Source of the DNA: Bacillota bacterium
GTDB lineage: Bacteria > Bacillota > Desulfotomaculia > Desulfotomaculales > JBFMEU01
Length of the DNA: 64,000 bases
Reading direction: 5' to 3'
Assembly (NCBI GenBank): GCA_040753155.1
Contig: JBFMEU010000004.1
Coordinates: 1,056-65,055 of the forward strand
The notes beneath the pieces were generated by a model. It saw only the letters and a list, made by a program, of their open reading frames with translations, was not told the DNA's origin and made no database searches. Positions within the stretch are counted from its first letter, which is position 1. Every line of letters begins with the position of its first letter. The position numbers and the translations under genes are program-made. Shown here one piece after another: positions 3,163-64,000 of this stretch.

Positions 3163-3432
3163 TCACCATTTCCTCAAAACATCGTGATGCCCAATTGCAT
3201 GGAGTACGAACGTATCGCTTTTACGTTCAAATATAATCCGGATATCGATATTAACGTAAGCTTCCCAAAACGGTGTGCCTTTGATTCGGTGTATTTGAAG
3301 AGAAGGGTGTTTGGGATTATTCAAAATCAAACGTAACGATTTTCTTGCCTGTTTTTGCTCCGTTTGTGATAGTTTGCGAAATTGAACCGCAAAAGGTTCA
3401 GTTAGAATTATCGTCGGCATTCTCTTCACCAA
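3163..3432 (-). CDS. type II toxin, RelE/ParE family
   Basis: 89 aa with the typical ...HRIKGTPFWEAYVNIDIRIIFERKSDTFVLHAIGHHD pattern. It lies downstream of, and overlaps, the antitoxin ORF. Confidence 0.75.
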   Translation of the reverse strand: MVKRMPTIILTEPFAVQFRKLSQTEQKQARKSLRLILNNPKHPSLQIHRIKGTPFWEAYVNIDIRIIFERKSDTFVLHAIGHHDVLRKW

Positions 3433-3697
3433 GCTCTTTCAGTAAGTCATCGGTATTAGTGAATGTTTTGTATTTTCCATTTTGTATTGCTTCAGCGCTA
3501 CGCTTCATTTTTTCCTGCCATTCTGCAGACCAAAAATATTCCTGCTTCTTATCGTGCCATGAAACGGGACGAATAAAAATTCCACCATCCCTTTCTTCCA
3601 TCGCCACATAATCACCTTCACTGATATTAATAGATTTTGCAATTTGGGCTAAACTAATTAACATCCGCTTCTGTACTTGCTGAATTTTTTCAGGCAT
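3398..3697 (-). CDS. type II antitoxin, AbrB/MazE/SpoVT-type DNA-binding domain
   Basis: 99 aa with a SpoVT-AbrB-like N-terminus (ISLAQIAKSINISEGDYVAMEERDGGIFIRP) and an acidic tail. A GAGGGG RBS sits upstream. Confidence 0.7.
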   Translation of the reverse strand: MPEKIQQVQKRMLISLAQIAKSINISEGDYVAMEERDGGIFIRPVSWHDKKQEYFWSAEWQEKMKRSAEAIQNGKYKTFTNTDDLLKELGEENADDNSN

Positions 3698-3849: not shown

Positions 3850-3974
3850 AGAGTTCACCTTTTAACTTTCCCGCCGTGAAGCCCCGTCCTGAGCAAAGCG
3901 AAGGGAGGGGTAGTTCACTAAACGGGACTAGTTATCTAGGTTCGTTTTATGTGATAAGTTGACGTTTTACAGCC

Positions 3975-4109
3975 TATCTCATACTTCGGAAACGCCATGG
4001 ATAAATGATAAATCGCAAGTACGAACAGGTGTGCCTTCTGCCATGCCAGTAAATCTTCAAATGTTTTCGCTGGTTTTCTCATTCTGACTCCTGACTCCTG
4101 AGTAGTTAC
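3975..4109 (-). mobile_element. family-B element copy B1 (truncated; one TIR plus the 5' part of the four-helix-bundle gene)
   Basis: It ends ...attctgactcctgactcctgagtagttac. It encodes MRKPAKTFEDLLAWQKAHLFVLAIYHLSMAFPKYE, the N-terminus typical of 23S rRNA IVS/four-helix-bundle proteins. The far TIR is missing. Confidence 0.8.
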
Positions 4110-6772: not shown

Positions 6773-6981
6773 TCATAGGGAAGGTAATTTTCAAAAGGGT
6801 CCAGGCGAATGATTTCTGCCGGATCATGGGGCAGTGTAGATGCATTGGCAACCAGGGCTGATAGCAGCCTGATTCGTGGACGGCAAGACGTTGCCGGGCA
6901 TAAAAGACATTAAAAAAGGCACAATAATAAATATAGTATGAGCTTTTCAATCTAATGGTTACTTTCTGTTACTAATCAAAA

Positions 6982-7239
6982 TCATATGGAGCAGAATTTG
7001 TCAGGCTGGTCGAGGCTGCCGATTGTTCTTGGGTCTTCACCGTTTCGGCTCTCCAGAGCCAACATGATGTATCGGATGAACACAATGGCAGTATGCGCCA
7101 CCATAGAGTCATAGGAACGCCCCTGAAACTCTTGGGCCAGCCTGAGATAGGACTTGGACATTTTAAAGAAAACTTCGATGTTCCAACGCTTCCCGTAAAT
7201 GCGGATCACTTCTTTGACCGTGGGCACCGACTTGAGCAC
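6982..7239 (-). pseudogene. IS4-family DDE transposase, C-terminal fragment
   Basis: YGKRWNIEVFFKMSK matches the IS4 Y-2-R-3-E-6-K signature. Only about 85 codons remain and there is no upstream catalytic region. Confidence 0.7.
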
Positions 7240-7357
7240 GCAAATGGTGTGAAGATGTTGTTCTAATACCTTTCTGAGTACGCCGGGAGTGGCGGTCTGC
7301 TTGTTGTGGTAAGGTCACACTTTACAGCCCATTAGAATAGAATGCTAAACCGGATTG

Positions 7358-7488
7358 ATCACTGAACCAATCCGCCCTAAGACCCCCGCCTCTGTAGGCG
7401 GCGGGTTTCAAAGGGCGGTTAAGTCCAGTATGGACTCGGCTAACATTCAGAGGGGGTTGAATCACCCTCTGAATGAAGTCTCGTTCAA
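7358..7488 (+). repeat. family-A 131 bp structured repeat, copy A1
   Basis: atcactgaaccaatccgccc...gaagtctcgttcaa, preceded by ttgat. The flanks ccggattg / caatccgg are reverse complements of each other. Confidence 0.9.
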
Positions 7489-8877: not shown

Positions 8878-8926
8878 GGGGTACAAAAGCAGGTAATTTA
8901 TGATCATAGGGATCAGAATTTGGTAT

Positions 8927-9044
<118 letters not shown>

Positions 9045-9136
9045 TTTGGTATAGCCCCGGATATAAATTGGTTTTATTTGGTTTTAACTGCTCCTTGATT
9101 TTTTTGGCCTGCCGTGTTACAATTACCGATGCAAAT

Positions 9137-9211
9137 GCGGGTGTAGCTCAATGGTAGAGCATCAGCTTCCCAAGCTGAGGGTTGAGGGTTCGATCCCCTT
9201 CACCCGCTCCA
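9137..9211 (+). tRNA. tRNA-Gly (anticodon CCC), CCA encoded
   Basis: A cloverleaf can be drawn by hand: acceptor gcgggtg/cacccgc, anticodon arm tcagc-ttCCCaa-gctga, T-loop ttcgatc. Confidence 0.9.
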
Positions 9212-9345
9212 ATAACAATGCAAGGCTTTCCCGATGGGGAAGGCCCTTTTTATGCCTATCTTGCTGCCGGAGAGAGCAGCCGGTTTTCCATTGAAGTGGT
9301 AACTTGTAATAAAACCCCCGAATTGGGCATGGTAATTTTCCAGGG

Positions 9346-9374
9346 TTGCCAGGGGATAAACATAGGCTTATAAT
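9346..9374 (+). promoter_or_regulatory. sigma-A type promoter candidate for the SCIFF operon
   Basis: TTGCCA, 17 nt spacer, TATAAT, about 35 nt upstream of the SCIFF start. Confidence 0.5.
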
Positions 9375-10970: not shown

Positions 10971-11148
10971 ATCTAGCGGTACTGAATGTGCAAATGGGAG
11001 AAAATAGCCAAGCAAACCGGAATATAATAGATGTAGGGCGCCATTTTCAACAGCTGAGACCGGTTGGCGGCCGGGTCGAGTTTATGCTATAATTTGGTCA
11101 GGCTTCAACATGAAGCTGCCAATTTCTACTTATTGTGGCACGTTATTC

Positions 11149-11279
11149 ATCACTGAACTAATCCGCCCTAAGACCCCCGCCTCTGTAGGCGGCGGGTTTC
11201 AAAGGGCGGTTAAGTCCAGTATGGACTCGGCTAACATTCAGAGGGGGTTGAATCCCCCTCTGAATGAAGTCTCGTTCAA
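11149..11279 (+). repeat. family-A repeat, copy A2
   Basis: Full-length copy preceded by ttcat. It sits between a TATAAT-containing candidate promoter and the M23 peptidase gene. Confidence 0.9.
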
Positions 11280-15998: not shown

Positions 15999-16061
15999 AT
16001 CACTGGACTCGGCTAACATTCAGAGGGGGTTGAATCCCCCTCTGAATGAAGTCTCGTTCAA
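15999..16061 (+). repeat. family-A repeat, copy A3 (63 bp internal-deletion form keeping both termini)
   Basis: atcact is joined directly to ggactcggctaacattcagaggggg...cgttcaa. It is preceded by tttat. Confidence 0.85.
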
Positions 16062-16267
16062 GCTTTAGGCCAGCTTACTTTTACAGTTAACTTGCATTCC
16101 TCTTCATCTTCGTCAAATTTAATTTTATATTCCAGTTCAACGTCATCAGGCACATGGATTTCCTGACTCTCAATGTTCAGGCTGCCACCTCTTAAACCTC
16201 CCGCTACTTCCATGATAAATTTAATAAAGTCCTGCTTGCCGCCCGTAAATTTTTCTGAGAAATCCAT
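16058..16267 (-). CDS. amphi-Trp domain protein (small acidic protein)
   Basis: 69 aa ending ...KLTVKVSWPKA, with the pattern expected of the amphi-Trp family. Its stop codon is formed by the last bases of repeat A3. Confidence 0.55.
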   Translation of the reverse strand: MDFSEKFTGGKQDFIKFIMEVAGGLRGGSLNIESQEIHVPDDVELEYKIKFDEDEEECKLTVKVSWPKA

Positions 16268-16328: not shown

Positions 16329-16528
<200 letters not shown>

Positions 16529-16627: not shown

Positions 16628-17632
16628 ATGCAGGAAAATACGGACCGGCTGGCCCGGGAGGTGCTGCGCCGTTACCGTATCGAACCGGATTGGATACGAC
16701 TGGTTCAGGGCGGCGGTATTAAAACCGTCTGGCAAGTTGCCGCCGGAAGCCGGTCTCTTTGTCTTAAGCGGCTCCGTCATACCCGGGACAGGGCTCTTTT
16801 TTCAGTGGGAGCCCAGGCGTATATGGCCGGTAAAGGGGCGGCGGTGAGTCCGGTACTGCTTCTCCCGGGTGGTGATTTGATGGTTGAACACGAGGGGTAT
16901 AATTATGTCCTCTACCAGTGGTTCAAAGGCCGCGGCCTGAATTTGTCCCGCAAAGAGGATTTGGCCCGGGGCGTAAGGGGTTTGGCGGCCTTTCACCGGG
17001 ATTCCGCCGGTTACAACCCTCCCCCCGGCGCCCGGGTTTCATCAAAACTAGGCAGGTTGGGGAACTACTACGCCTCGGTAACCAAACGTTTGCTGCAGTG
17101 GCAGGAGCAGGCGCTGGAGCTGGGACAAAACAGTTTAGCCCGGGCCTACCTGGGAGAAGTTGAGGCAGCCCTGGAAATGGCCGGCCGGGCTATGACGTTG
17201 TTGGATCAGTCAATTTACAGTTCCTGGAGCGACCAGTTTGCCGGCGACGCGGGTCTTTGTCATCAAGATTTTGGGGATGGCAATGCGCTCCTTGTTGATA
17301 ACAAGCTGCACATCCTGGACCTGGACGGGGTAACCTTTGATTTGCCTGTCCGGGATTTGCGCAAGCTGCTCTTAAAGCAGATGTCCTCCAGGGGTAAATG
17401 GGACGAAGCATTGCTGCAGGATACTTTAAGTTGGTATAGTGAGATTTATCCTCTTAATCCCTCACAAATTCAGGTTTTGTTGATAGATTTGTTCTTTCCT
17501 CACGAGCTGCACGACAGTGCCAAGAACTATTTTAAAAAGGGCAAAAGTATAAAAGCCGCTGAAATACACCGGGCCGGAGGGGCTCTGCGCCGCAAGAAGG
17601 AATTCCTGGGCAATTATTTATCACTGAACTAA
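16628..17632 (+). CDS. CotS-family spore coat protein kinase-like protein
   Basis: 334 aa with an HQDFGDGN catalytic-loop motif and an aminoglycoside-phosphotransferase-like fold. The last codons SLN-stop lie inside repeat A4. Confidence 0.75.
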   Translation: MQENTDRLAREVLRRYRIEPDWIRLVQGGGIKTVWQVAAGSRSLCLKRLRHTRDRALFSVGAQAYMAGKGAAVSPVLLLPGGDLMVEHEGYNYVLYQWFKGRGLNLSRKEDLARGVRGLAAFHRDSAGYNPPPGARVSSKLGRLGNYYASVTKRLLQWQEQALELGQNSLARAYLGEVEAALEMAGRAMTLLDQSIYSSWSDQFAGDAGLCHQDFGDGNALLVDNKLHILDLDGVTFDLPVRDLRKLLLKQMSSRGKWDEALLQDTLSWYSEIYPLNPSQIQVLLIDLFFPHELHDSAKNYFKKGKSIKAAEIHRAGGALRRKKEFLGNYLSLN

Positions 17633-17750
17633 TCCGCCCTAAGACCCCCGCCTCTGTAGGCGGCGGGTTTCAAAGGGCGGTTAAGTCCAGTATGGACTCG
17701 GCTAACATTCAGAGGGGGTTGAATCCCCCTCTGAATGAAGTCTCGTTCAA
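17620..17750 (+). repeat. family-A repeat, copy A4
   Basis: Full-length copy preceded by tttat. It bridges two cotS-like genes. Confidence 0.9.
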
Positions 17751-35178: not shown

Positions 35179-35240
35179 GTAACTATTCAGGTATTCAGTT
35201 TCTCATTCTGACTACTGACTCCTGACTCCTGAGTAGTTAC
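35179..35240 (-). mobile_element. family-B element copy B4 (62 bp minimal form: the two TIRs only)
   Basis: gtaactattcaggtattcag-tttctc-attctgactactgactcctgactcctgagtagttac. A perfect 8 bp direct repeat cgccgtta lies on both sides. Confidence 0.85.
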
Positions 35241-42233: not shown

Positions 42234-43601
42234 ATGCGCTACAAAAGTTTCTTGCCTTGGGTTGTCGGCCTGCTGGCTGTAGCCTTGGTTGGCTACTGGG
42301 GCTATCAGCAGTATTCCGCCCGGGAGTCGATGCGGGTATATGTGGGCAATAGCTACCAAAGAGCGTTCTTTAACGTCATAGACCATGTAAGAAACATTGA
42401 GGCTATGCTGGCCAAGGGCCTGGTTGCGGCGGACCGGCAGCAGGATTTAGAGCTCTTTACAGATGTGTGGCGGCAATCAAATGCCGCCCTGGACAACTTG
42501 GCCCAGTTGCCGGTATCAGATGCGCAAATAAGCCGTACGGCCAAATTTCTGACCCAGGTGGGAGATTACTGCCATTCCCTGGTGCTAAAAACAGCTGAAG
42601 GTCAGACTATTGATGAGGAAAACTGGCAAACCTTGAACCGGCTTTACCGGCAGTCGTCAATTCTGCACCGGGAATTACTGGCAATTAATGATAACGTTAC
42701 CAATGGGCGGTTTGACTTTTACAAGCTGGCCGGGGAGGCCGGCCGTAAGCTCGGGCCCACCGGGCGCAACCTGGCAGACGCTAATTTTTCTACCATTACC
42801 AAGCAAATGCAGGATTACCCGAGCCTCATTTACGACGGTCCCTTTTCAGACCACCTGGAGCGGGTCAAACCAAGGGGCCTGAACAATGAGCAAATAAACC
42901 AGGCCCAGGCCAGGCAAAGGGCTGAGCGGTTTATTGAGAAGCGCCGGGGAACAACCTATACAGGCCGTGTAACAGGGGAAGTGGAGGGTGCCATTCCCGC
43001 CTACCGGGTTGAGGTAATACCTGAAAGGGGCGGTGAGCGCAGGGGCCCTGCGGCAAGTATGGACTTATCCCGGCAGGGGGGAGAAGTAATCTGGATGCTG
43101 CAGCCCCGAAACATCGGCGAGGCCAGATGGGAAACCGACCGGGCCAGAGAAAAGGCACAAAAGTTTCTGGCCGAGCGGGGCCACAAAAATATGGTAGCCA
43201 GATACTTTCAGCGGCTGGACAATGCGGTAACCTTTAATTTTGCCGCCAAAGAGGGCGATGTAATCCTGTACCCCGACTTAATCAAGGTGACCGTGGCCCT
43301 GGATAATGGCGAGGTGGTGGGCTACGATGCTAAAGGATATTTGATGGCCCACCATGACCGCAAACTGCCGGAGCCCAAGGTTTCCCGGGAGGAGGCGGCA
43401 GCCTTGATCACTCCCCGTCTGAGAGTAGAAGAGGGCCGCCTGGCGGTAATTCCCGACGGCGTGGATAAGGAAAAGCTGACCTGGGAATTCGAAGGGGACT
43501 TGGACAAAGAGACCTTTCTGGTTTACATTAATGCCCTGACCGGCCGGGAGGAAAACATACTGCGGCTGTACAAAACAGACCAGGGCACGCTGGCGATGTA
43601 A
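42234..43601 (+). CDS. ypeB: germination protein YpeB
   Basis: 455 aa with an N-terminal TM helix, C-terminal PepSY repeats, and the conserved sleB-ypeB pairing. Confidence 0.8.
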   Translation: MRYKSFLPWVVGLLAVALVGYWGYQQYSARESMRVYVGNSYQRAFFNVIDHVRNIEAMLAKGLVAADRQQDLELFTDVWRQSNAALDNLAQLPVSDAQISRTAKFLTQVGDYCHSLVLKTAEGQTIDEENWQTLNRLYRQSSILHRELLAINDNVTNGRFDFYKLAGEAGRKLGPTGRNLADANFSTITKQMQDYPSLIYDGPFSDHLERVKPRGLNNEQINQAQARQRAERFIEKRRGTTYTGRVTGEVEGAIPAYRVEVIPERGGERRGPAASMDLSRQGGEVIWMLQPRNIGEARWETDRAREKAQKFLAERGHKNMVARYFQRLDNAVTFNFAAKEGDVILYPDLIKVTVALDNGEVVGYDAKGYLMAHHDRKLPEPKVSREEAAALITPRLRVEEGRLAVIPDGVDKEKLTWEFEGDLDKETFLVYINALTGREENILRLYKTDQGTLAM

Positions 43602-43610
43602 GAGCTCAAT

Positions 43611-43787
43611 GTAACTACTCAGGAGTCAGGAGTCAGAAGTCAGGAGTCAGAATGAGAAAACCAGCAAAACATTTGAGATTTACTGATATGGCAGAAGGCG
43701 CACTTGTTCGTACTTGCGGTTTATCGTTTATCCATGGCGTTTCCGAAGTATGAGATATACGGTCCATTCTGACTCCTGAGTAGTTAC
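43611..43787 (+). mobile_element. family-B element copy B6 (both TIRs plus frameshifted gene 5' part)
   Basis: gtaactactcaggagtcaggagtcagaagtcaggagtcagaatgagaaaacc...attctgactcctgagtagttac. The flanking direct repeats are gagctcaat / gagttcaat (8 of 9). Confidence 0.85.
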
Positions 43788-43826
43788 GAGTTCAATTATT
43801 TCCAGTTCCCGCTGGCCGGTTTTCCG

Positions 43827-43855
43827 TTGACACTGCCGGCAACCCGTGCTATAAT
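43827..43855 (+). promoter_or_regulatory. consensus sigma-A promoter of the T-box leader
   Basis: TTGACA, 17 nt spacer, TATAAT. Confidence 0.75.
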
Positions 43856-43861
43856 TGGCGC

Positions 43862-44129
43862 TGAAGTCATTAAAGCACGGTTATGACGGGGAATAAGGGT
43901 TTAGGAGAATCTCTCAGCGAGCCGGGGTTGGTGCGAGCCTGGCAGAGGAATAAACCTGCCGCCACCCCTGAACTGCAGACCGAAACCCGCGGTAAACGCC
44001 GGGGGGATTAAGTCGGGCCGGCCGCCGCCGTTACCGGCTCCGAGAGGACTGTGCCTTGGCAGGTACAGTCAAGCAGGGTGGTACCGCGAGACATGGTCTC
44101 GTCCCTTAGGGGGCGGGACCTTTTATTTT
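43862..44129 (+). promoter_or_regulatory. T-box riboswitch leader
   Basis: Stem I elements (agcgagccggggttggtgcgagcc), the T-box sequence agcagGGTGGTACCGCG at 44071-44088, and terminator ggtctcgtccc/ggggcgggacc plus ttttatttt. I cannot assign the specifier codon confidently; the loop reads ggaauaaaccu. Confidence 0.8.
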
Positions 44130-44233
44130 GTAACTACTCAGGAGTCAGGAGTCAGGAGTCAGAATGAGAAAACCAGCGAAAACATTTGAAGATTTACTGG
44201 TATGGCAGAAGGCGCACCTGTTTGTATTTGCTG

Positions 44234-44358
44234 TTTATCTTCGCACAGCCTGTAAGACCCCGCCCTCGCATAAGGAAAGGGGACACACCTGCTGAAGCTT
44301 GGGTATTTCTCTGGGGACAGGAATGTCCCCAACGTATGGGTTAAAACCCCGCCTGAAC
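44234..44358 (-). repeat. family-C repeat nested in B8 (partly deleted)
   Basis: tttatcttcgcacagcctgtaagaccccgccctcgcataagg...gggttaaaaccccgcctgaac matches the reverse complement of 52086-52309, with an internal deletion between two ggaatgtccccaac repeats. Confidence 0.75.
44279..44330 (-). repeat. family-D hairpin module (split form)
   Basis: Reverse complement of ggggacattcctgtcccc...aggtgtgtcccc. Confidence 0.6.
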
Positions 44359-44422
44359 GTGACTCCTGACTCCTGAATTCTGAATACCTGAGTAGCTACA
44401 AGAAAGGAGTGATTACGGGATT

Positions 44423-44902
44423 ATGAAGGAAATACTTGAGCTGTTGGAATTCGATGCCAGGCTGACCGCCAATGAGATTGCCGTTATGCTGAACATGGAC
44501 CTGGCGGAAGTCCGGCGCTCCATCAAAGAATTGGAAGACAATAAAACCATTTTAAAGTACATTACCCTGGTGAACTGGGAAAAGGTCGGCGAAGAAAAGG
44601 TGAGCGCCTTTATCGAGGTGCGTACCACCCCCCAGCGGGATGTGGGGTTTGACGCCGTGGCCGAGCGAATCTACCGCTTTCCGGAGGTGCGCAGCGTCAG
44701 GTTGATGAGCGGGGTCTATGACCTGGCCGTGTTTATTGAAGGGCGGACGATGAAGGAAGTGTCCCACTTTGTATCCACCAAACTGGCCACCATTGAGGGT
44801 GTGGTCAGCACCACCACCCACTTTGTTTTAAAGACTTACAAGCAAGACGGCGTCATACTGGATGACGCAGAGGAAGATAGAAGGCTGGTGATATCGCCAT
44901 GA
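44423..44902 (+). CDS. Lrp/AsnC family transcriptional regulator
   Basis: 159 aa with an N-terminal HTH (LELLEFDARLTANEIAVMLNMDLAEVRRSIKELE) and a C-terminal RAM domain. Confidence 0.8.
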   Translation: MKEILELLEFDARLTANEIAVMLNMDLAEVRRSIKELEDNKTILKYITLVNWEKVGEEKVSAFIEVRTTPQRDVGFDAVAERIYRFPEVRSVRLMSGVYDLAVFIEGRTMKEVSHFVSTKLATIEGVVSTTTHFVLKTYKQDGVILDDAEEDRRLVISP

Positions 44903-46119
44903 CAACAAACTGGCAGGAAATGCTTAACCCCAGGGTGCGCAACATGCCCCCCTCGGGCATCAGGCGTTTTTTTGACCTGGTAACGGAAACCAAAGGGGTT
45001 ATTTCCCTGGGAGTTGGTGAGCCTGATTTTGTCACCCCCTGGCATATTCGGGAGGCCTGCATCTATTCCCTGGAAAAGGGCTTCACCATGTACACCTCCA
45101 ACCTGGGCCTGCTGGAGCTGAGGGAGGCCATAGCCCGGGATCTGGCGGGAAGTTACGGGGTAAAATACGACCCCCGGAGCCAGATTCTAATTACGGTGGG
45201 GGTTAGCGAGGCTTTGGACCTGGCCTTTCGGGCCCTGGTTTGCCCGGGTGACGAGGTGCTGATTCCGGAGCCCTCCTATGTTTCCTATGCGCCGGGTGTT
45301 ATCCTGGCCGGTGGGACGCCCGTAATGATGCCCACCACCATGGAGAATAATTTTCAACTGACTGCCCGGCAAGTGGAGGCAGCCATTACACCGGAGACCA
45401 AGGCCCTGTTATTGTGCTACCCCAACAATCCCACCGGCGCCGTTATGGGGCGGGAAGAACTGCTGAAAATTTCCGAGGTGGCCCGGGCCCGCAACCTGAT
45501 TGTGATTTCCGACGAGATCTACGATAAGTTGACCTATATTGGTGAGCATACCTGCCTGGCCGCTCTGCCGGAGATGCGGGAGCGGACGGTGCTGCTGAAC
45601 GGTTTTAGCAAGGCCTACGCCATGACCGGCTGGCGGGTGGGGTACGCTGCCGGCAATCCGGACTTTATTGAGGCCATGACCAAAATTCACCAGTATTCCA
45701 TGCTTTGTGCCCCCATCACCGCCCAGATGGCCGCCCTGGAGGCGCTGAAAAACGGCGCCGGCGGCATGCAGCGCATGGCGCAGCAGTACAACCGGCGCCG
45801 GCACCTGGTAATGCAGAGCTTCAAGGATATGGGCCTGCCCTGCTTTGAGCCCGGCGGCGCCTTTTACGCCTTTCCCCAGGTATCAATTACCGGCTTGAAA
45901 TCCGAGGCCTTTGCCGAGGAGCTTTTAAAAGAGGAGCAGGTGGCCGTTGTTCCCGGTAATGCCTTCGGCCCCTCGGGGGATGATTTTGTGCGCATTTCCT
46001 ATGCCGCCTCGGTGGACGATTTGGGTGAGGCCTTCCGGCGTATGGCCCGCTTTGTCCGCAGGCGCGGCGTCAAAGGCCGGGCCGGTTCTCATGTCATTCC
46101 CCTGGCTGCGGTAAAGTAA
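44899..46119 (+). CDS. class I/II PLP-dependent aminotransferase (aspartate/aromatic aminotransferase-like)
   Basis: 406 aa with NPTGAV and the SKAYAMTGWRVGY lysine motif. Its start overlaps the regulator stop. Confidence 0.85.
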   Translation: MTTNWQEMLNPRVRNMPPSGIRRFFDLVTETKGVISLGVGEPDFVTPWHIREACIYSLEKGFTMYTSNLGLLELREAIARDLAGSYGVKYDPRSQILITVGVSEALDLAFRALVCPGDEVLIPEPSYVSYAPGVILAGGTPVMMPTTMENNFQLTARQVEAAITPETKALLLCYPNNPTGAVMGREELLKISEVARARNLIVISDEIYDKLTYIGEHTCLAALPEMRERTVLLNGFSKAYAMTGWRVGYAAGNPDFIEAMTKIHQYSMLCAPITAQMAALEALKNGAGGMQRMAQQYNRRRHLVMQSFKDMGLPCFEPGGAFYAFPQVSITGLKSEAFAEELLKEEQVAVVPGNAFGPSGDDFVRISYAASVDDLGEAFRRMARFVRRRGVKGRAGSHVIPLAAVK

Positions 46120-46254: not shown

Positions 46255-46314
46255 AGGGGGTTTTTCAGAAATCTAGAAGGATTTTGTCAGATGACAGAGA
46301 ATTATATGTCTTTG

Positions 46315-46421
46315 ATCACTGAACTAATCCGCCCTAAGACCCCCGCCTCTGTAGGCGGCGGGTTTCAAAGGGCGGTTAAGTCCAGTATGGACTCGGCTAA
46401 CATAACACCGGTTTCGTTGAA
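46315..46421 (+). repeat. family-A repeat, copy A5 (third hairpin replaced or deleted)
   Basis: It matches A through ...ggactcggctaacat, then reads aacaccg-gtttcgttgaa. It is preceded by ttgat. Confidence 0.8.
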
Positions 46422-46549
46422 TGCAGGCGCCCGGGTTTTTTGGAGGTATAAGAGCCGGGGTTTAAAGGTTTTTCCGCCCTGGTTATTTTTATGTTCCTGG
46501 CGCCGCCCCGGGGTGTGCCGTCACCTAAGAGCAAGGAAGTGGAAAGCTT

Positions 46550-51952: not shown

Positions 51953-52122
51953 ACCGACCACACTTTACTTCAGCTTTGGTATGGCCAAAGCTTTTGTTAC
52001 TATTCAGGTATTCAGAATTCAGGAGTCAGGATTCAGAATGGACCGTAGATCTCATACTTCGGAAACGCCATAGATAAACGATAAAGAAGACTTGGTTCAG
52101 GTGGGGTTTTAACCCATACGTT

Positions 52123-52153
52123 GGGGACATTCCTCCGAAGGAGGTGTGTCCCC
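52123..52153 (+). repeat. family-D hairpin module
   Basis: ggggacattcctcc-gaa-ggaggtgtgtcccc replaces catctg in the basal C hairpin loop. Confidence 0.7.
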
Positions 52154-52212
52154 TGACCGCTAAACCTTAGTCGCACTTATTTCGAGCTTACAGCCTGTTA
52201 ATCCCATTAGTT

Positions 52213-52264
52213 GGGGACATTCCTGTCCCCAGAGAAATACCCAAGCTTCAGCAGGTGTGTCCCC
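52213..52264 (+). repeat. family-D hairpin module (split/extended form)
   Basis: ggggacattcctgtcccc-agagaaatacccaagcttcagc-aggtgtgtcccc lies inside the long C hairpin. Confidence 0.6.
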
Positions 52265-52445
52265 TTTCCTTATGCGAGGGCGGGGTCTTACAGGCTGTGC
52301 GAAGATAAACCGCAAGTACGAACAGGTGCGCCTTCTGCCATACCAGTAAATCTTCAAATGTTTTCGCTGGTTTTCTCATTCTGACTCCTGACTTCTGACT
52401 CCTGACTCCTGAGTAGTTACAAGTTTTTTTTGAGGAGGGGTTTGC

Positions 52446-54372: not shown

Positions 54373-54513
54373 TATTATTTGGCCGGCCTGAAGGGATTTC
54401 TTTCCATAGCAGCGAATGCATATCATTATTATTCAGGTATTCAGAATTCAGGAGTCAGAATTCAGAATAACCGTATATCTCATACTTCGGAAACGCCATG
54501 GATAAACGATAAA

Positions 54514-54637
54514 GAAGACTTGGTTCAGGTGTGGTTTTAACCCATACGTTGGGGACATTCCTCCGAAGGAGGTGTGTCCCCTGACCGCTAAACCTTAGTC
54601 ACACTTATTTCGAGCTTACAGGCTGTGCGAAGATAAA
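54514..54637 (+). repeat. family-C repeat nested in B10 (124 bp form; long hairpin collapsed)
   Basis: gaagacttggttcaggtgtgg...cgagcttaca|ggctgtgcgaagataaa. The deletion lies between cttaca repeats. Confidence 0.75.
54551..54581 (+). repeat. family-D hairpin module
   Basis: Identical to 52123-52153. Confidence 0.7.
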
Positions 54638-54782
54638 CCGCAAGTACAAACAGGTGCGCCTTCTGCCATACCAGTAAATCTTTAAATGTTTTTGCTGGTT
54701 TTCTAATTCTGACTCCTGATTTAAAAAAGGATTTTTCTCTTATAACGGCGTATGTATATTAATCATAAATTTATAAGCAGCC

Positions 54783-58874: not shown

Positions 58875-59043
58875 GTAACTACTCAGGAGTCAGGAGTCAG
58901 TAGTCAGGAGTCAGAATGAGTCTTGGATACGGTGATATTTACGAAACAAAACTTCTCTTGTAAGAGGTTGGTAAATTGCTGGAAGCATATTCTCGGGGCA
59001 TTCTGAATTCTGACTCCTGAATTCTGAATACCTGAATAGTAAC
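58875..59043 (+). mobile_element. family-B element copy B7 (both TIRs plus the 3' end of the four-helix-bundle gene)
   Basis: The left TIR runs up to atgag, then LGYGDIYETKLLL-EVGKLLEAYSRG-like C-terminal coding remnant, then the right TIR. A perfect 8 bp direct repeat cctgatta lies on both sides. Confidence 0.85.
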
Positions 59044-63898: not shown

Positions 63899-63903
63899 GC
63901 TTC

Positions 63904-64000
63904 ATCACTGAACTAATCCGCCCTAAGACCCCCGCCTCTGTAGGCGGCGGGTTTCAAAGGGCGGTTAAGTCCAGTATGGACTCGGCTAACATTCAGAGGG
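63904..64000 (+). repeat. family-A repeat, copy A7 (cut by the window end)
   Basis: atcactgaactaatccgccc...ggctaacattcagaggg, preceded by ttcat. It starts 6 nt after the radical SAM gene stop. Confidence 0.9.

Follow-up and report, generated by a model that had tools for sequence, protein, structure and literature searches.

We examined a 64,000-nt stretch of DNA (hereafter the window; contig JBFMEU010000004.1, assembly GCA_040753155.1) from an uncultured, spore-forming member of the Bacillota near Desulfotomaculum/Peptococcaceae. Our subject is a locus on its forward strand in which a T-box leader, with its promoter and terminator, is followed by a 270-bp mobile element (E7) and then by a gene pair encoding a regulator and an aminotransferase. 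An earlier, sequence-only reading of the window had described this arrangement and had suggested that the element might uncouple tRNA sensing from expression of the genes.

The T-box leader and its operon

Upstream of the leader lies the promoter TTGACA-17-TATAAT (43827–43855). It matched the consensus at 12/12 positions (−35 TTGACA at 43827–43832; −10 TATAAT at 43850–43855, preceded by TG), as the sequence-only reading had it, and a promoter scan of 43500–44600 gave it as the sole strong promoter-like site. Hexamers and spacing were unchanged in the related loci L020, L022 and L025; L001 had TTGACA-17-TACAAT, and L026 was judged by eye.

The leader itself (43874–44109) comprises Stem I, the Stem II/IIA-B region, Stem III and the antiterminator. 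The sequence-only reading had claimed a complete T-box and had proposed alignment with Rfam RF00230 as the check. Comparison of the window with the RF00230 covariance model gave 94.4 bits (E = 2.1e-19) over the full model, positions 1–219; this is barely above the gathering score of 93 bits, and orthologous leaders scored 67–99 bits. In the model alignment, Stem I showed UGA...GA at its GA/K-turn base, GCC plus A before CCCC, and the distal platform strings CAGCGAGCC and GGUUGGUGCGAG. The T-box sequence AGGGTGGTACCGCG (AGGGUGGUACCGCG) was located at 44075–44088 by both the Rfam alignment and an alignment of eight orthologous leaders. It contains the bulge UGGU (44079–44082), whose pairing partner would be the ACCA end of an uncharged tRNA; tRNA-Ala has the discriminator base A73.

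An intrinsic terminator follows at 44095–44129, with an 11-bp stem (44095–44120, 8 GC pairs), a UUAG loop and the U-tract TTTTATTTT at 44121–44129, where the terminator had been claimed to end. Its stem showed compensatory changes among the orthologues (alignment columns 280/305 and 281/304). The antiterminator 3' strand GGUCUCGUCCC is also the 5' strand of the terminator (44095–44120), and the two folds compete. All positions that were invariant across the eight orthologous leaders were preserved in the window leader, the U-tract included. We concluded from the covariance model and the alignment that the leader is a genuine T-box and is complete.

Results showed that the specifier codon is GCC (Ala) at 43961–43963, both in the RF00230 alignments and in the eight-leader alignment; it is followed by the purine A (43964) and by CCCC, the basal 3' strand of Stem I. 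The 3' side of the specifier loop reads GCC-GCC-A in the model alignment and abuts the CCCC of the basal helix. The codon was invariant in 8/8 leaders (alignment columns G100 C101 C102), the next nucleotide being A or G and the following ones CCC(C/U). The candidates put forward by the sequence-only reading, AUA, AAC and ACC, were rejected: all lie in ggaauaaaccu (43947–43957), which belongs to the helix above the specifier loop, on its 3' strand, and falls outside the loop itself. Judged by its specifier, the T-box senses alanine.

Two further observations concern this region of the leader. The specifier loop looks reduced in the orthologue group, with ~4 nt on its 5' side and NN-GCC-R on its 3' side (window 43894–43901 and 43955–43964), and the T-box model alignment had gaps at the 5' AGUA, with the 3' GAA of the S-turn unmatched, in the window and in L001–L003, L012, L020, L022 and L025. 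From the eight leaders, RNAalifold derived a long-range pairing between UGCCGCCC in the specifier region and GGGUGGUA in the T-box sequence. We take this pairing to be an artefact caused by two conserved, G/C-rich strings, because its pairs never vary and because it clashes with the architecture of the covariance model.

The first gene of the operon encodes an alaR-like regulator of the Lrp/AsnC family (44423–44902, 159 aa; translation and profile match), and the second an alaT-like class I pyridoxal phosphate (PLP) aminotransferase (44899–46119, 406 aa), whose start overlaps the regulator stop by 4 nt. The Shine-Dalgarno sequence of the regulator gene is AAGGAG at 44404–44409, and the spacing from GGAG to ATG is long, at 13 nt. 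Compared with L020, dN/dS was 0.018 for the regulator and 0.086 for the aminotransferase (dS 0.47–0.67); neither gene is disrupted, and strong purifying selection acts on both.

According to the sequence-only reading, the pair was not a classic aminoacyl-tRNA synthetase target. That holds insofar as no synthetase is present. The pair is no odd target, since an Ala T-box regulon 'alaS; alaRT' has been catalogued for Clostridium cellulolyticum H10 and C. novyi NT on the basis of RegPrecise (PMC3766115, Additional file 2). In B. subtilis, moreover, AlaT (YugH) is the principal transaminase that forms alanine (bioRxiv 10.1101/562850). An Ala codon ahead of an aminotransferase fits as a coherent pairing of specifier and operon. 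The window leader and the Clostridia leaders share RNA family, specificity, kind of target operon, and control by terminator and antiterminator (PMC3766115). They differ in their host, here an uncultured spore-forming Bacillota, in the 270-bp insertion, found in one species, and in the S-turn, whose usual AGUA/GAA positions appear, going by the model alignment, to be missing from the orthologue group of the window.

The inserted element and the empty sites of relatives

Base 44130, directly after the U-tract, is the first G of the element motif GTAACTACTCAGGAGTCAG, and 23 nt lie between the element's last base (44399) and the regulator ATG at 44423. The sequence-only reading, which called the element B8, had placed the insertion exactly after the U-tract and 23 nt from the genes, and the limits 44130–44399 were confirmed to the base.

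That reading had also proposed a comparison with relatives lacking the insertion. We compared seven orthologous leaders: four were obtained by genome scan (Desulfotruncus arcticus, two Peptococcaceae metagenome-assembled genomes and one Desulfotomaculum metagenome-assembled genome), and the other three were on contigs whose regulators were 98, 91 and 88% identical to that of the window. At all seven loci a T-box (67–99 bits) stood directly ahead of the same Lrp/AsnC-aminotransferase pair without the element, and the distance from U-tract to ATG was 19–95 nt. In the closest relative (L020/L021, regulator 98% identical) the empty site reads ...GGGGCGAGGC TTTTTTATTTT CTACAGTCTAACAGG AAGGGAGTGATTACGGGACATG; the filled site in the window reads ...GGGGCGGGACC TTTTATTTT (270 bp) AAGAAAGGAGTGATTACGGGATTATG. 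Because the relatives join the same leader to the same genes by 19–95 nt, we concluded that the 270-bp block is a real, lineage-specific insertion.

The surrounding gene order, sleB-ypeB-leader-regulator-aminotransferase, was common to the window and its six closest relatives (L019–L024). Between ypeB and the regulator, L020 has 381 nt of intergenic DNA and the window 822 nt, a difference due to E7 and to a second copy of the same family, E6 (43611–43787, forward strand), both of which are missing from the relatives. E6 begins 10 nt past the ypeB stop, leaves 39 nt before the −35 hexamer, is flanked by a 9-bp target duplication (GAGCTCAAT/GAGTTCAAT) and is missing from the orthologous intergenic region of L020/L021. 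An identical regulator was found in contigs of five samples, and the right end of E7 adjoined the gene in every such contig; the insertion is thus no rare variant. An independent JGI contig contained 44150–44399 and both genes with one base difference from the window. Contig ERZ22146367, from another sample record, was identical over 6,480 bp, the independence of its assembly from that of the window contig not being established. Three short-read contigs ended within the right repeat of the element.

E7 is a decayed, non-autonomous element with terminal inverted repeats (TIRs), GTAACTACTCAGGAGTCAG... pairing with ...CCTGAGTAGCTAC, and its ends pair over 9 + 16 bp inside the element. The left terminal repeat (44130–44163) begins with GTAACTACTCAGG, continues with GGAGTCA heptamers and would supply the 5' arm of a terminal stem. 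A 43-codon open frame follows (44164–44295), with GGAG 6 nt ahead of its ATG. Its first ~25 codons (44164–44239, MRKPAKTFEDLLVWQKAH...) are the N-terminus of a gene for a four-helix-bundle protein of PF05635 (23S rRNA intervening sequence protein) and share their residues with the family's reconstructed frame described below; the rest enters a nested fragment of a second small repeat (TTCGCACAGCCTGTAAGACCCC..., 44240–44359) that sits at TTTATC. The GGGGACA...TGTCCCC hairpins of this fragment are those that the sequence-only reading had named C/D hairpins. The right terminal repeat (44360–44399), with TGACTCC heptamers ... CCTGAGTAGCTAC, would supply the 3' arm. The claim of a composite 270-bp element thus held: the TIR element hosts a second, nested small repeat.

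E7 lost two internal segments compared with the copy E8 (51996–52420), and its right end has diverged. On these features E7 is an internally deleted cassette of the 23S rRNA intervening sequence (IVS) type that carries a fragment of the second small repeat. Its flanks lack a target duplication, with 1/8 positions matching (TTTATTTT versus AAGAAAGG), and the window has lost the 9–15-nt spacer that its three closest relatives have ahead of the Shine-Dalgarno sequence. Because the duplication is absent and the spacer is gone, a deletion probably took place with or after the insertion of E7.

As RNA, the heptamers resemble translation signals: those of the left arm (GGAGUCA, 44145–44163) are Shine-Dalgarno-like repeats, and those of the right arm (UGACUCC, 44360–44376) contain an anti-Shine-Dalgarno-like CUCC. 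The second small repeat (TTCGCACAGCCTGTAAGACCCC ... CCAAGTCTTC) has a standalone copy at ~697–806 and is nested in three copies of the first family (44130–44399, 51996–52420 and 54425–54722). All three hosts carry it at the same TTTATC site, and it apparently duplicates TTTATC (TTTATC/TTTATA at the standalone copy).

Transcription across the element

We searched 44130–44422 for transcription signals. A standard sigma-70-type scan found no promoter-like site of at least 9/12 there, and a laxer scan of the element region gave no better than 4/6 at −10, the −35 matches being no more than 3/6. No second intrinsic terminator was found in 44130–44422. With no sigma-A-like promoter and no intrinsic terminator in the element or after it, read-through transcripts are expected to include it in their 5' untranslated region (5' UTR), as had been claimed. 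The predicted fold of the read-through RNA (−118.8 kcal/mol, z −4.9) has terminal helices of 16 bp (44145–60/44361–76), 9 bp and 7 bp, in line with the TIR-to-TIR stem of the sequence-only reading. At the base of this stem, AGGAG (44405–44409) is predicted to pair with CUUUU (44120–44124) of the U-tract, a chance extension of the stem. The modelled mean unpaired probability of the Shine-Dalgarno sequence was 0.42 in the window versus 0.68–0.86 in the relatives; strong sequestration is only moderately supported.

The proposed uncoupling of tRNA sensing from expression was not borne out, because the tRNA decision is complete while polymerase stands on the U-tract, ahead of any transcription of the element, and neither the element nor the sequence after it holds a replacement promoter of at least 9/12. 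IVS and Correia elements offer an analogy on which the terminal stem is a plausible RNase III substrate. The further suggestion that the element may add a processing or translation layer is reasonable and plausible.

We consider it probable that an Ala T-box controls an alaR-alaT-type operon at this locus and that the dead 270-bp element in the spacer leaves this control in place; alanine control is most likely retained because the decision precedes the element and because the element brings neither promoter nor terminator. Uncharged tRNA-Ala would pair its anticodon GGC with GCC (43961–43963) and its free ACCA end with UGGU (44079–44082). The pairing would stabilise the antiterminator, and RNA polymerase would then pass the terminator at 44095–44129. 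In the species of the window only, a dead mobile element has landed between the U-tract and the ribosome-binding site, and read-through mRNA would hold it in the 5' UTR with its two ends forming a long, imperfect helix. RNase III would probably cut this helix, detaching the leader from the coding part and freeing the ribosome-binding site. The net effect would probably be near neutral, or a modest shift in translation start and mRNA stability. Within this account, our results show the T-box and its specificity, the insertion and the empty sites of relatives, the lack of a promoter or terminator and the predicted fold; we infer the tRNA response, the RNase III cleavage and the near-neutrality.

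Several points weigh against retained alanine control through a harmless spacer. The missing 8–9-bp duplication at E7 points to a deletion, or to something besides simple transposition, in its history. The AlaT label derives from the gene pairing, the predicted T-box specificity and an NCBIfam match under its cut-off (PRK07682, the best match of the aminotransferase, at 565 versus 620 bits). The element is without a sigma-A-like promoter, and promoters for alternative sigma factors lie outside such a scan. Expression may be reduced, and not unchanged, given the drop in Shine-Dalgarno accessibility, which is moderate and comes from the model alone. Lastly, no uninterrupted helix exceeds 16 bp, and it is only in rRNA that processing of an IVS has been shown.

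Substantial damping, or silencing, of the operon by the insertion is unlikely in our judgement; in that case the stem would hide the Shine-Dalgarno sequence, the 270-nt, mostly untranslated stretch would invite premature termination or decay, and the T-box would gate a poorly expressed mRNA. The pairing of AGGAG with CUUUU in the minimum-free-energy fold, the lowered unpaired probability and the long 13-nt spacing would all act in that direction. However, both genes are intact (dN/dS 0.02–0.09), the insertion was kept in all five samples, and members of the same family stand 35 nt before the glmS start on another contig and 26 nt before another start in the window (E8); the accessibility change is a moderate one, given by a thermodynamic model alone. 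If the element had instead been co-opted as an extra regulatory layer, translation of the 43-codon upstream frame (44164–44295) or regulated RNase III cleavage would tune alaRT. The GGAG 6 nt before the ATG of that frame suits such a role, as does RNase III cleavage of the T-box-controlled met leader of S. aureus, which shapes mRNA stability (PMC7913692). We judge co-option distinctly unlikely, because the element is visibly decayed, with two internal deletions compared with E8 and a diverged right end, the frame is a truncated gene remnant that enters an unrelated repeat, and the closest relatives do without the element.

Even less room is left for a promoter within the element that drives the genes independently of tRNA-Ala and reduces the T-box to an orphan relic. 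Mobile elements in general can carry outward promoters, and alternative sigma-factor promoters would escape the scan, but no sigma-70-type site reached 9/12 and the best −10 match was 4/6 with 3/6 or less at −35. In addition, copies occur in both orientations beside genes, which argues against a directional promoter, and the T-box retains every invariant position and scores as well as the leaders of relatives; we find this explanation very unlikely. Hardly credible is an assembly artefact, in which a metagenome contig was misjoined through the repeat. E7 is without a target duplication and three short-read contigs break inside its right repeat, as a misjoin might produce, yet the gene order from sleB to the aminotransferase is that of L019–L024, ERZ22146367 agrees with the window over its 6,480 bp (with the reservation on independence given above), and the JGI contig covers 44150–44399 and both genes with its one base difference. 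All contigs that reach the upstream side of the gene end in the right repeat of the element, so the insertion is certainly present.

Retained alanine control, the reading we prefer, would add little to T-box biology: all components of the locus belong to known kinds, an Ala T-box ahead of alaRT being catalogued and a 5' UTR harbouring a MITE (miniature inverted-repeat transposable element) being a known phenomenon, and the locus would be one more Ala T-box on alaRT. The papers that we searched gave no reported MITE sitting exactly between a riboswitch-type terminator and its open reading frame (ORF). Nature has here put ~270 nt of structured foreign RNA between terminator and ribosome-binding site with the operon apparently not killed, and the locus offers a convenient test of whether the co-transcriptional decision is independent of downstream sequence. 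In S. aureus, RNase III processing of the met T-box leader affects the stability of the operon mRNA; cleavage there falls in the native leader (PMC7913692), whereas the putative substrate here is foreign DNA inserted after the leader.

The element family and its relation to rRNA intervening sequences

The motif GTAACTACTCAGGAGTCAG occurred 12 times in the window (10 exact occurrences and two with 3 mismatches), against an expectation of 0.00 and none in 100 shuffles. Ten family copies of 62–425 bp, all intergenic, were found in the 64 kb: 3950–4109, 8927–9044, 16329–16528, 35179–35240, 40659–~40800, 43611–43787 (E6), 44130–44399 (E7), 51996–52420 (E8), 54425–~54722 and 58875–59043. The basic unit consists of the left end GTAACTACTCAGG with GGAGTCA heptamers, an ATG, a short frame (MRKPAKTFEDLLVWQKAHLFVLAVYRLSMAFPKYEIYGPF*), and right-hand TGACTCC/TGAATTC heptamers ending in ...CCTGAATAGTAAC. 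Six of the seven complete copies had 8–9-bp target duplications with at most one mismatch, E7 being the exception.

We reconstructed the short frame (40 aa), which matched positions 1–30 of PF05635 (E = 1.6e-5; under the cut-off since truncated) and TIGR02436 as well. A scan of metagenomes with a 22-mer over the last heptamer and the start codon yielded 33 further loci, none of which overlaps the window, so that they added no filled-versus-empty comparison. Four of the 33 had a full ORF of 121 aa, whose C-terminus (…ILNSDS*) runs into the right-hand heptamers; this ORF scored 120.3 bits on PF05635 and matched PDB entries 2gsc and 2rld. The full ORFs have the same ends as the short copies, which are thus internal-deletion derivatives of a ~0.45-kb cassette. 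No partner transposase was identified for the family. The terminal GTAA and the 8-bp duplication are reminiscent of the IS66 family, a conceivable kinship on which a literature search gave nothing usable.

All ten window copies sit between protein-coding or tRNA genes, and an Rfam scan found no rRNA in the window. There being no 23S rRNA helix as host site, the family should be called 'IVS-like' and not an IVS. Copies next to genes occur in both orientations. On contig L027 a glmS ribozyme (94 bits) is separated from the start of glmS by a copy (1330–1700) that stops 35 nt short of the ATG, and on L055 another (6948–7272) follows a Moco riboswitch with terminator at a distance of ~45 nt. Counting the T-box, three insertions separate a leader RNA from its gene, numbers too small for enrichment; such insertions between a cis-regulatory RNA and a gene are evidently tolerated.

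In Coxiella burnetii, the terminal repeats of the 23S rRNA IVS form a 28-bp stem that RNase III cuts in its middle, and heptameric repeats precede the start of an S23p ORF (PMC4990558). The 23S rRNA IVSs of Coxiella and Leptospira and the window family share a TIR stem, heptamers before the start codon, a PF05635 ORF and a unit of ~0.4–0.5 kb (PMC4990558). In contrast, the window copies are intergenic, mostly internally deleted and flanked by 8–9-bp duplications, and RNase III excision is only presumed for them. A second comparison is with the Correia elements of Neisseria and with ERIC, which are likewise small, non-autonomous TIR elements in intergenic regions or 5' UTRs; RNase III cuts Correia elements in mRNAs at the TIRs, and the transcribed TIR stems of Correia and ERIC are RNase III substrates that can alter mRNA level (review, PMC10969869). 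The window family differs from these in sequence and in its origin, which would be a protein-gene cassette and not an insertion sequence with a recognisable transposase.

The target duplications, the filled versus empty sites and the deletion derivatives suggest that IVS-type elements transpose in this lineage. The origin and mobility of 23S IVS elements have been only hypothesised since the early 1990s (PMC4990558). We advance tentatively, with rather less than even confidence, the idea that the S23p/four-helix-bundle 'intervening sequence' cassette is a true transposable element that spreads intergenically with 8–9-bp duplications, gives rise to deletion derivatives and persists in leaders through removal of its stem by RNase III. 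The larger potential value of the locus lies here, in that the long-puzzling 23S rRNA IVS/S23p cassettes become linked to a repeat family that is dispersed, duplicates its target and can be compared, cleanly filled or empty, among close relatives. Removal of the stem would make insertions between riboswitch and gene nearly harmless, and, were the whole idea right, the origin and mobility of 23S IVS elements would be directly testable with this family.

Several further observations were made on the family and on its neighbours. The window's only tRNA gene (9137–9208, 72.7 bits) has, 92 nt upstream of it, the 118-bp copy at 8927–9044, which consists almost entirely of heptamer repeats. In an AT-rich organism, the full-length 121-aa cassette stands directly upstream of an alaS-like ORF (MNYMTSNQIREIFLKFFESKGH), on L037 (reverse strand) at ~8900–9350 and on L054 at 3240–3690. 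L037 gave no T-box match, L054 being scanned only at the gathering threshold; elsewhere on the L037 contig there is a 6S RNA match. The 22 nt around the start codon of the L037/L054 cassette are the same as in the window copies, and the protein has visibly diverged, as judged by eye. Such identity in spite of a diverged protein may point to constrained ends or to horizontal spread. Unrelated to the other two is a third repeat family (TTCATCACTGAACTAATCCGCCCTAAGACCCCCGCC..., ~100–137 nt), found at 7352–7488, 11143–11279, 17614–17750, 46309–46445 and 63901–64000, with a partial copy at 16004–16064; the copy at 46309–46445 lies just downstream of the aminotransferase gene.

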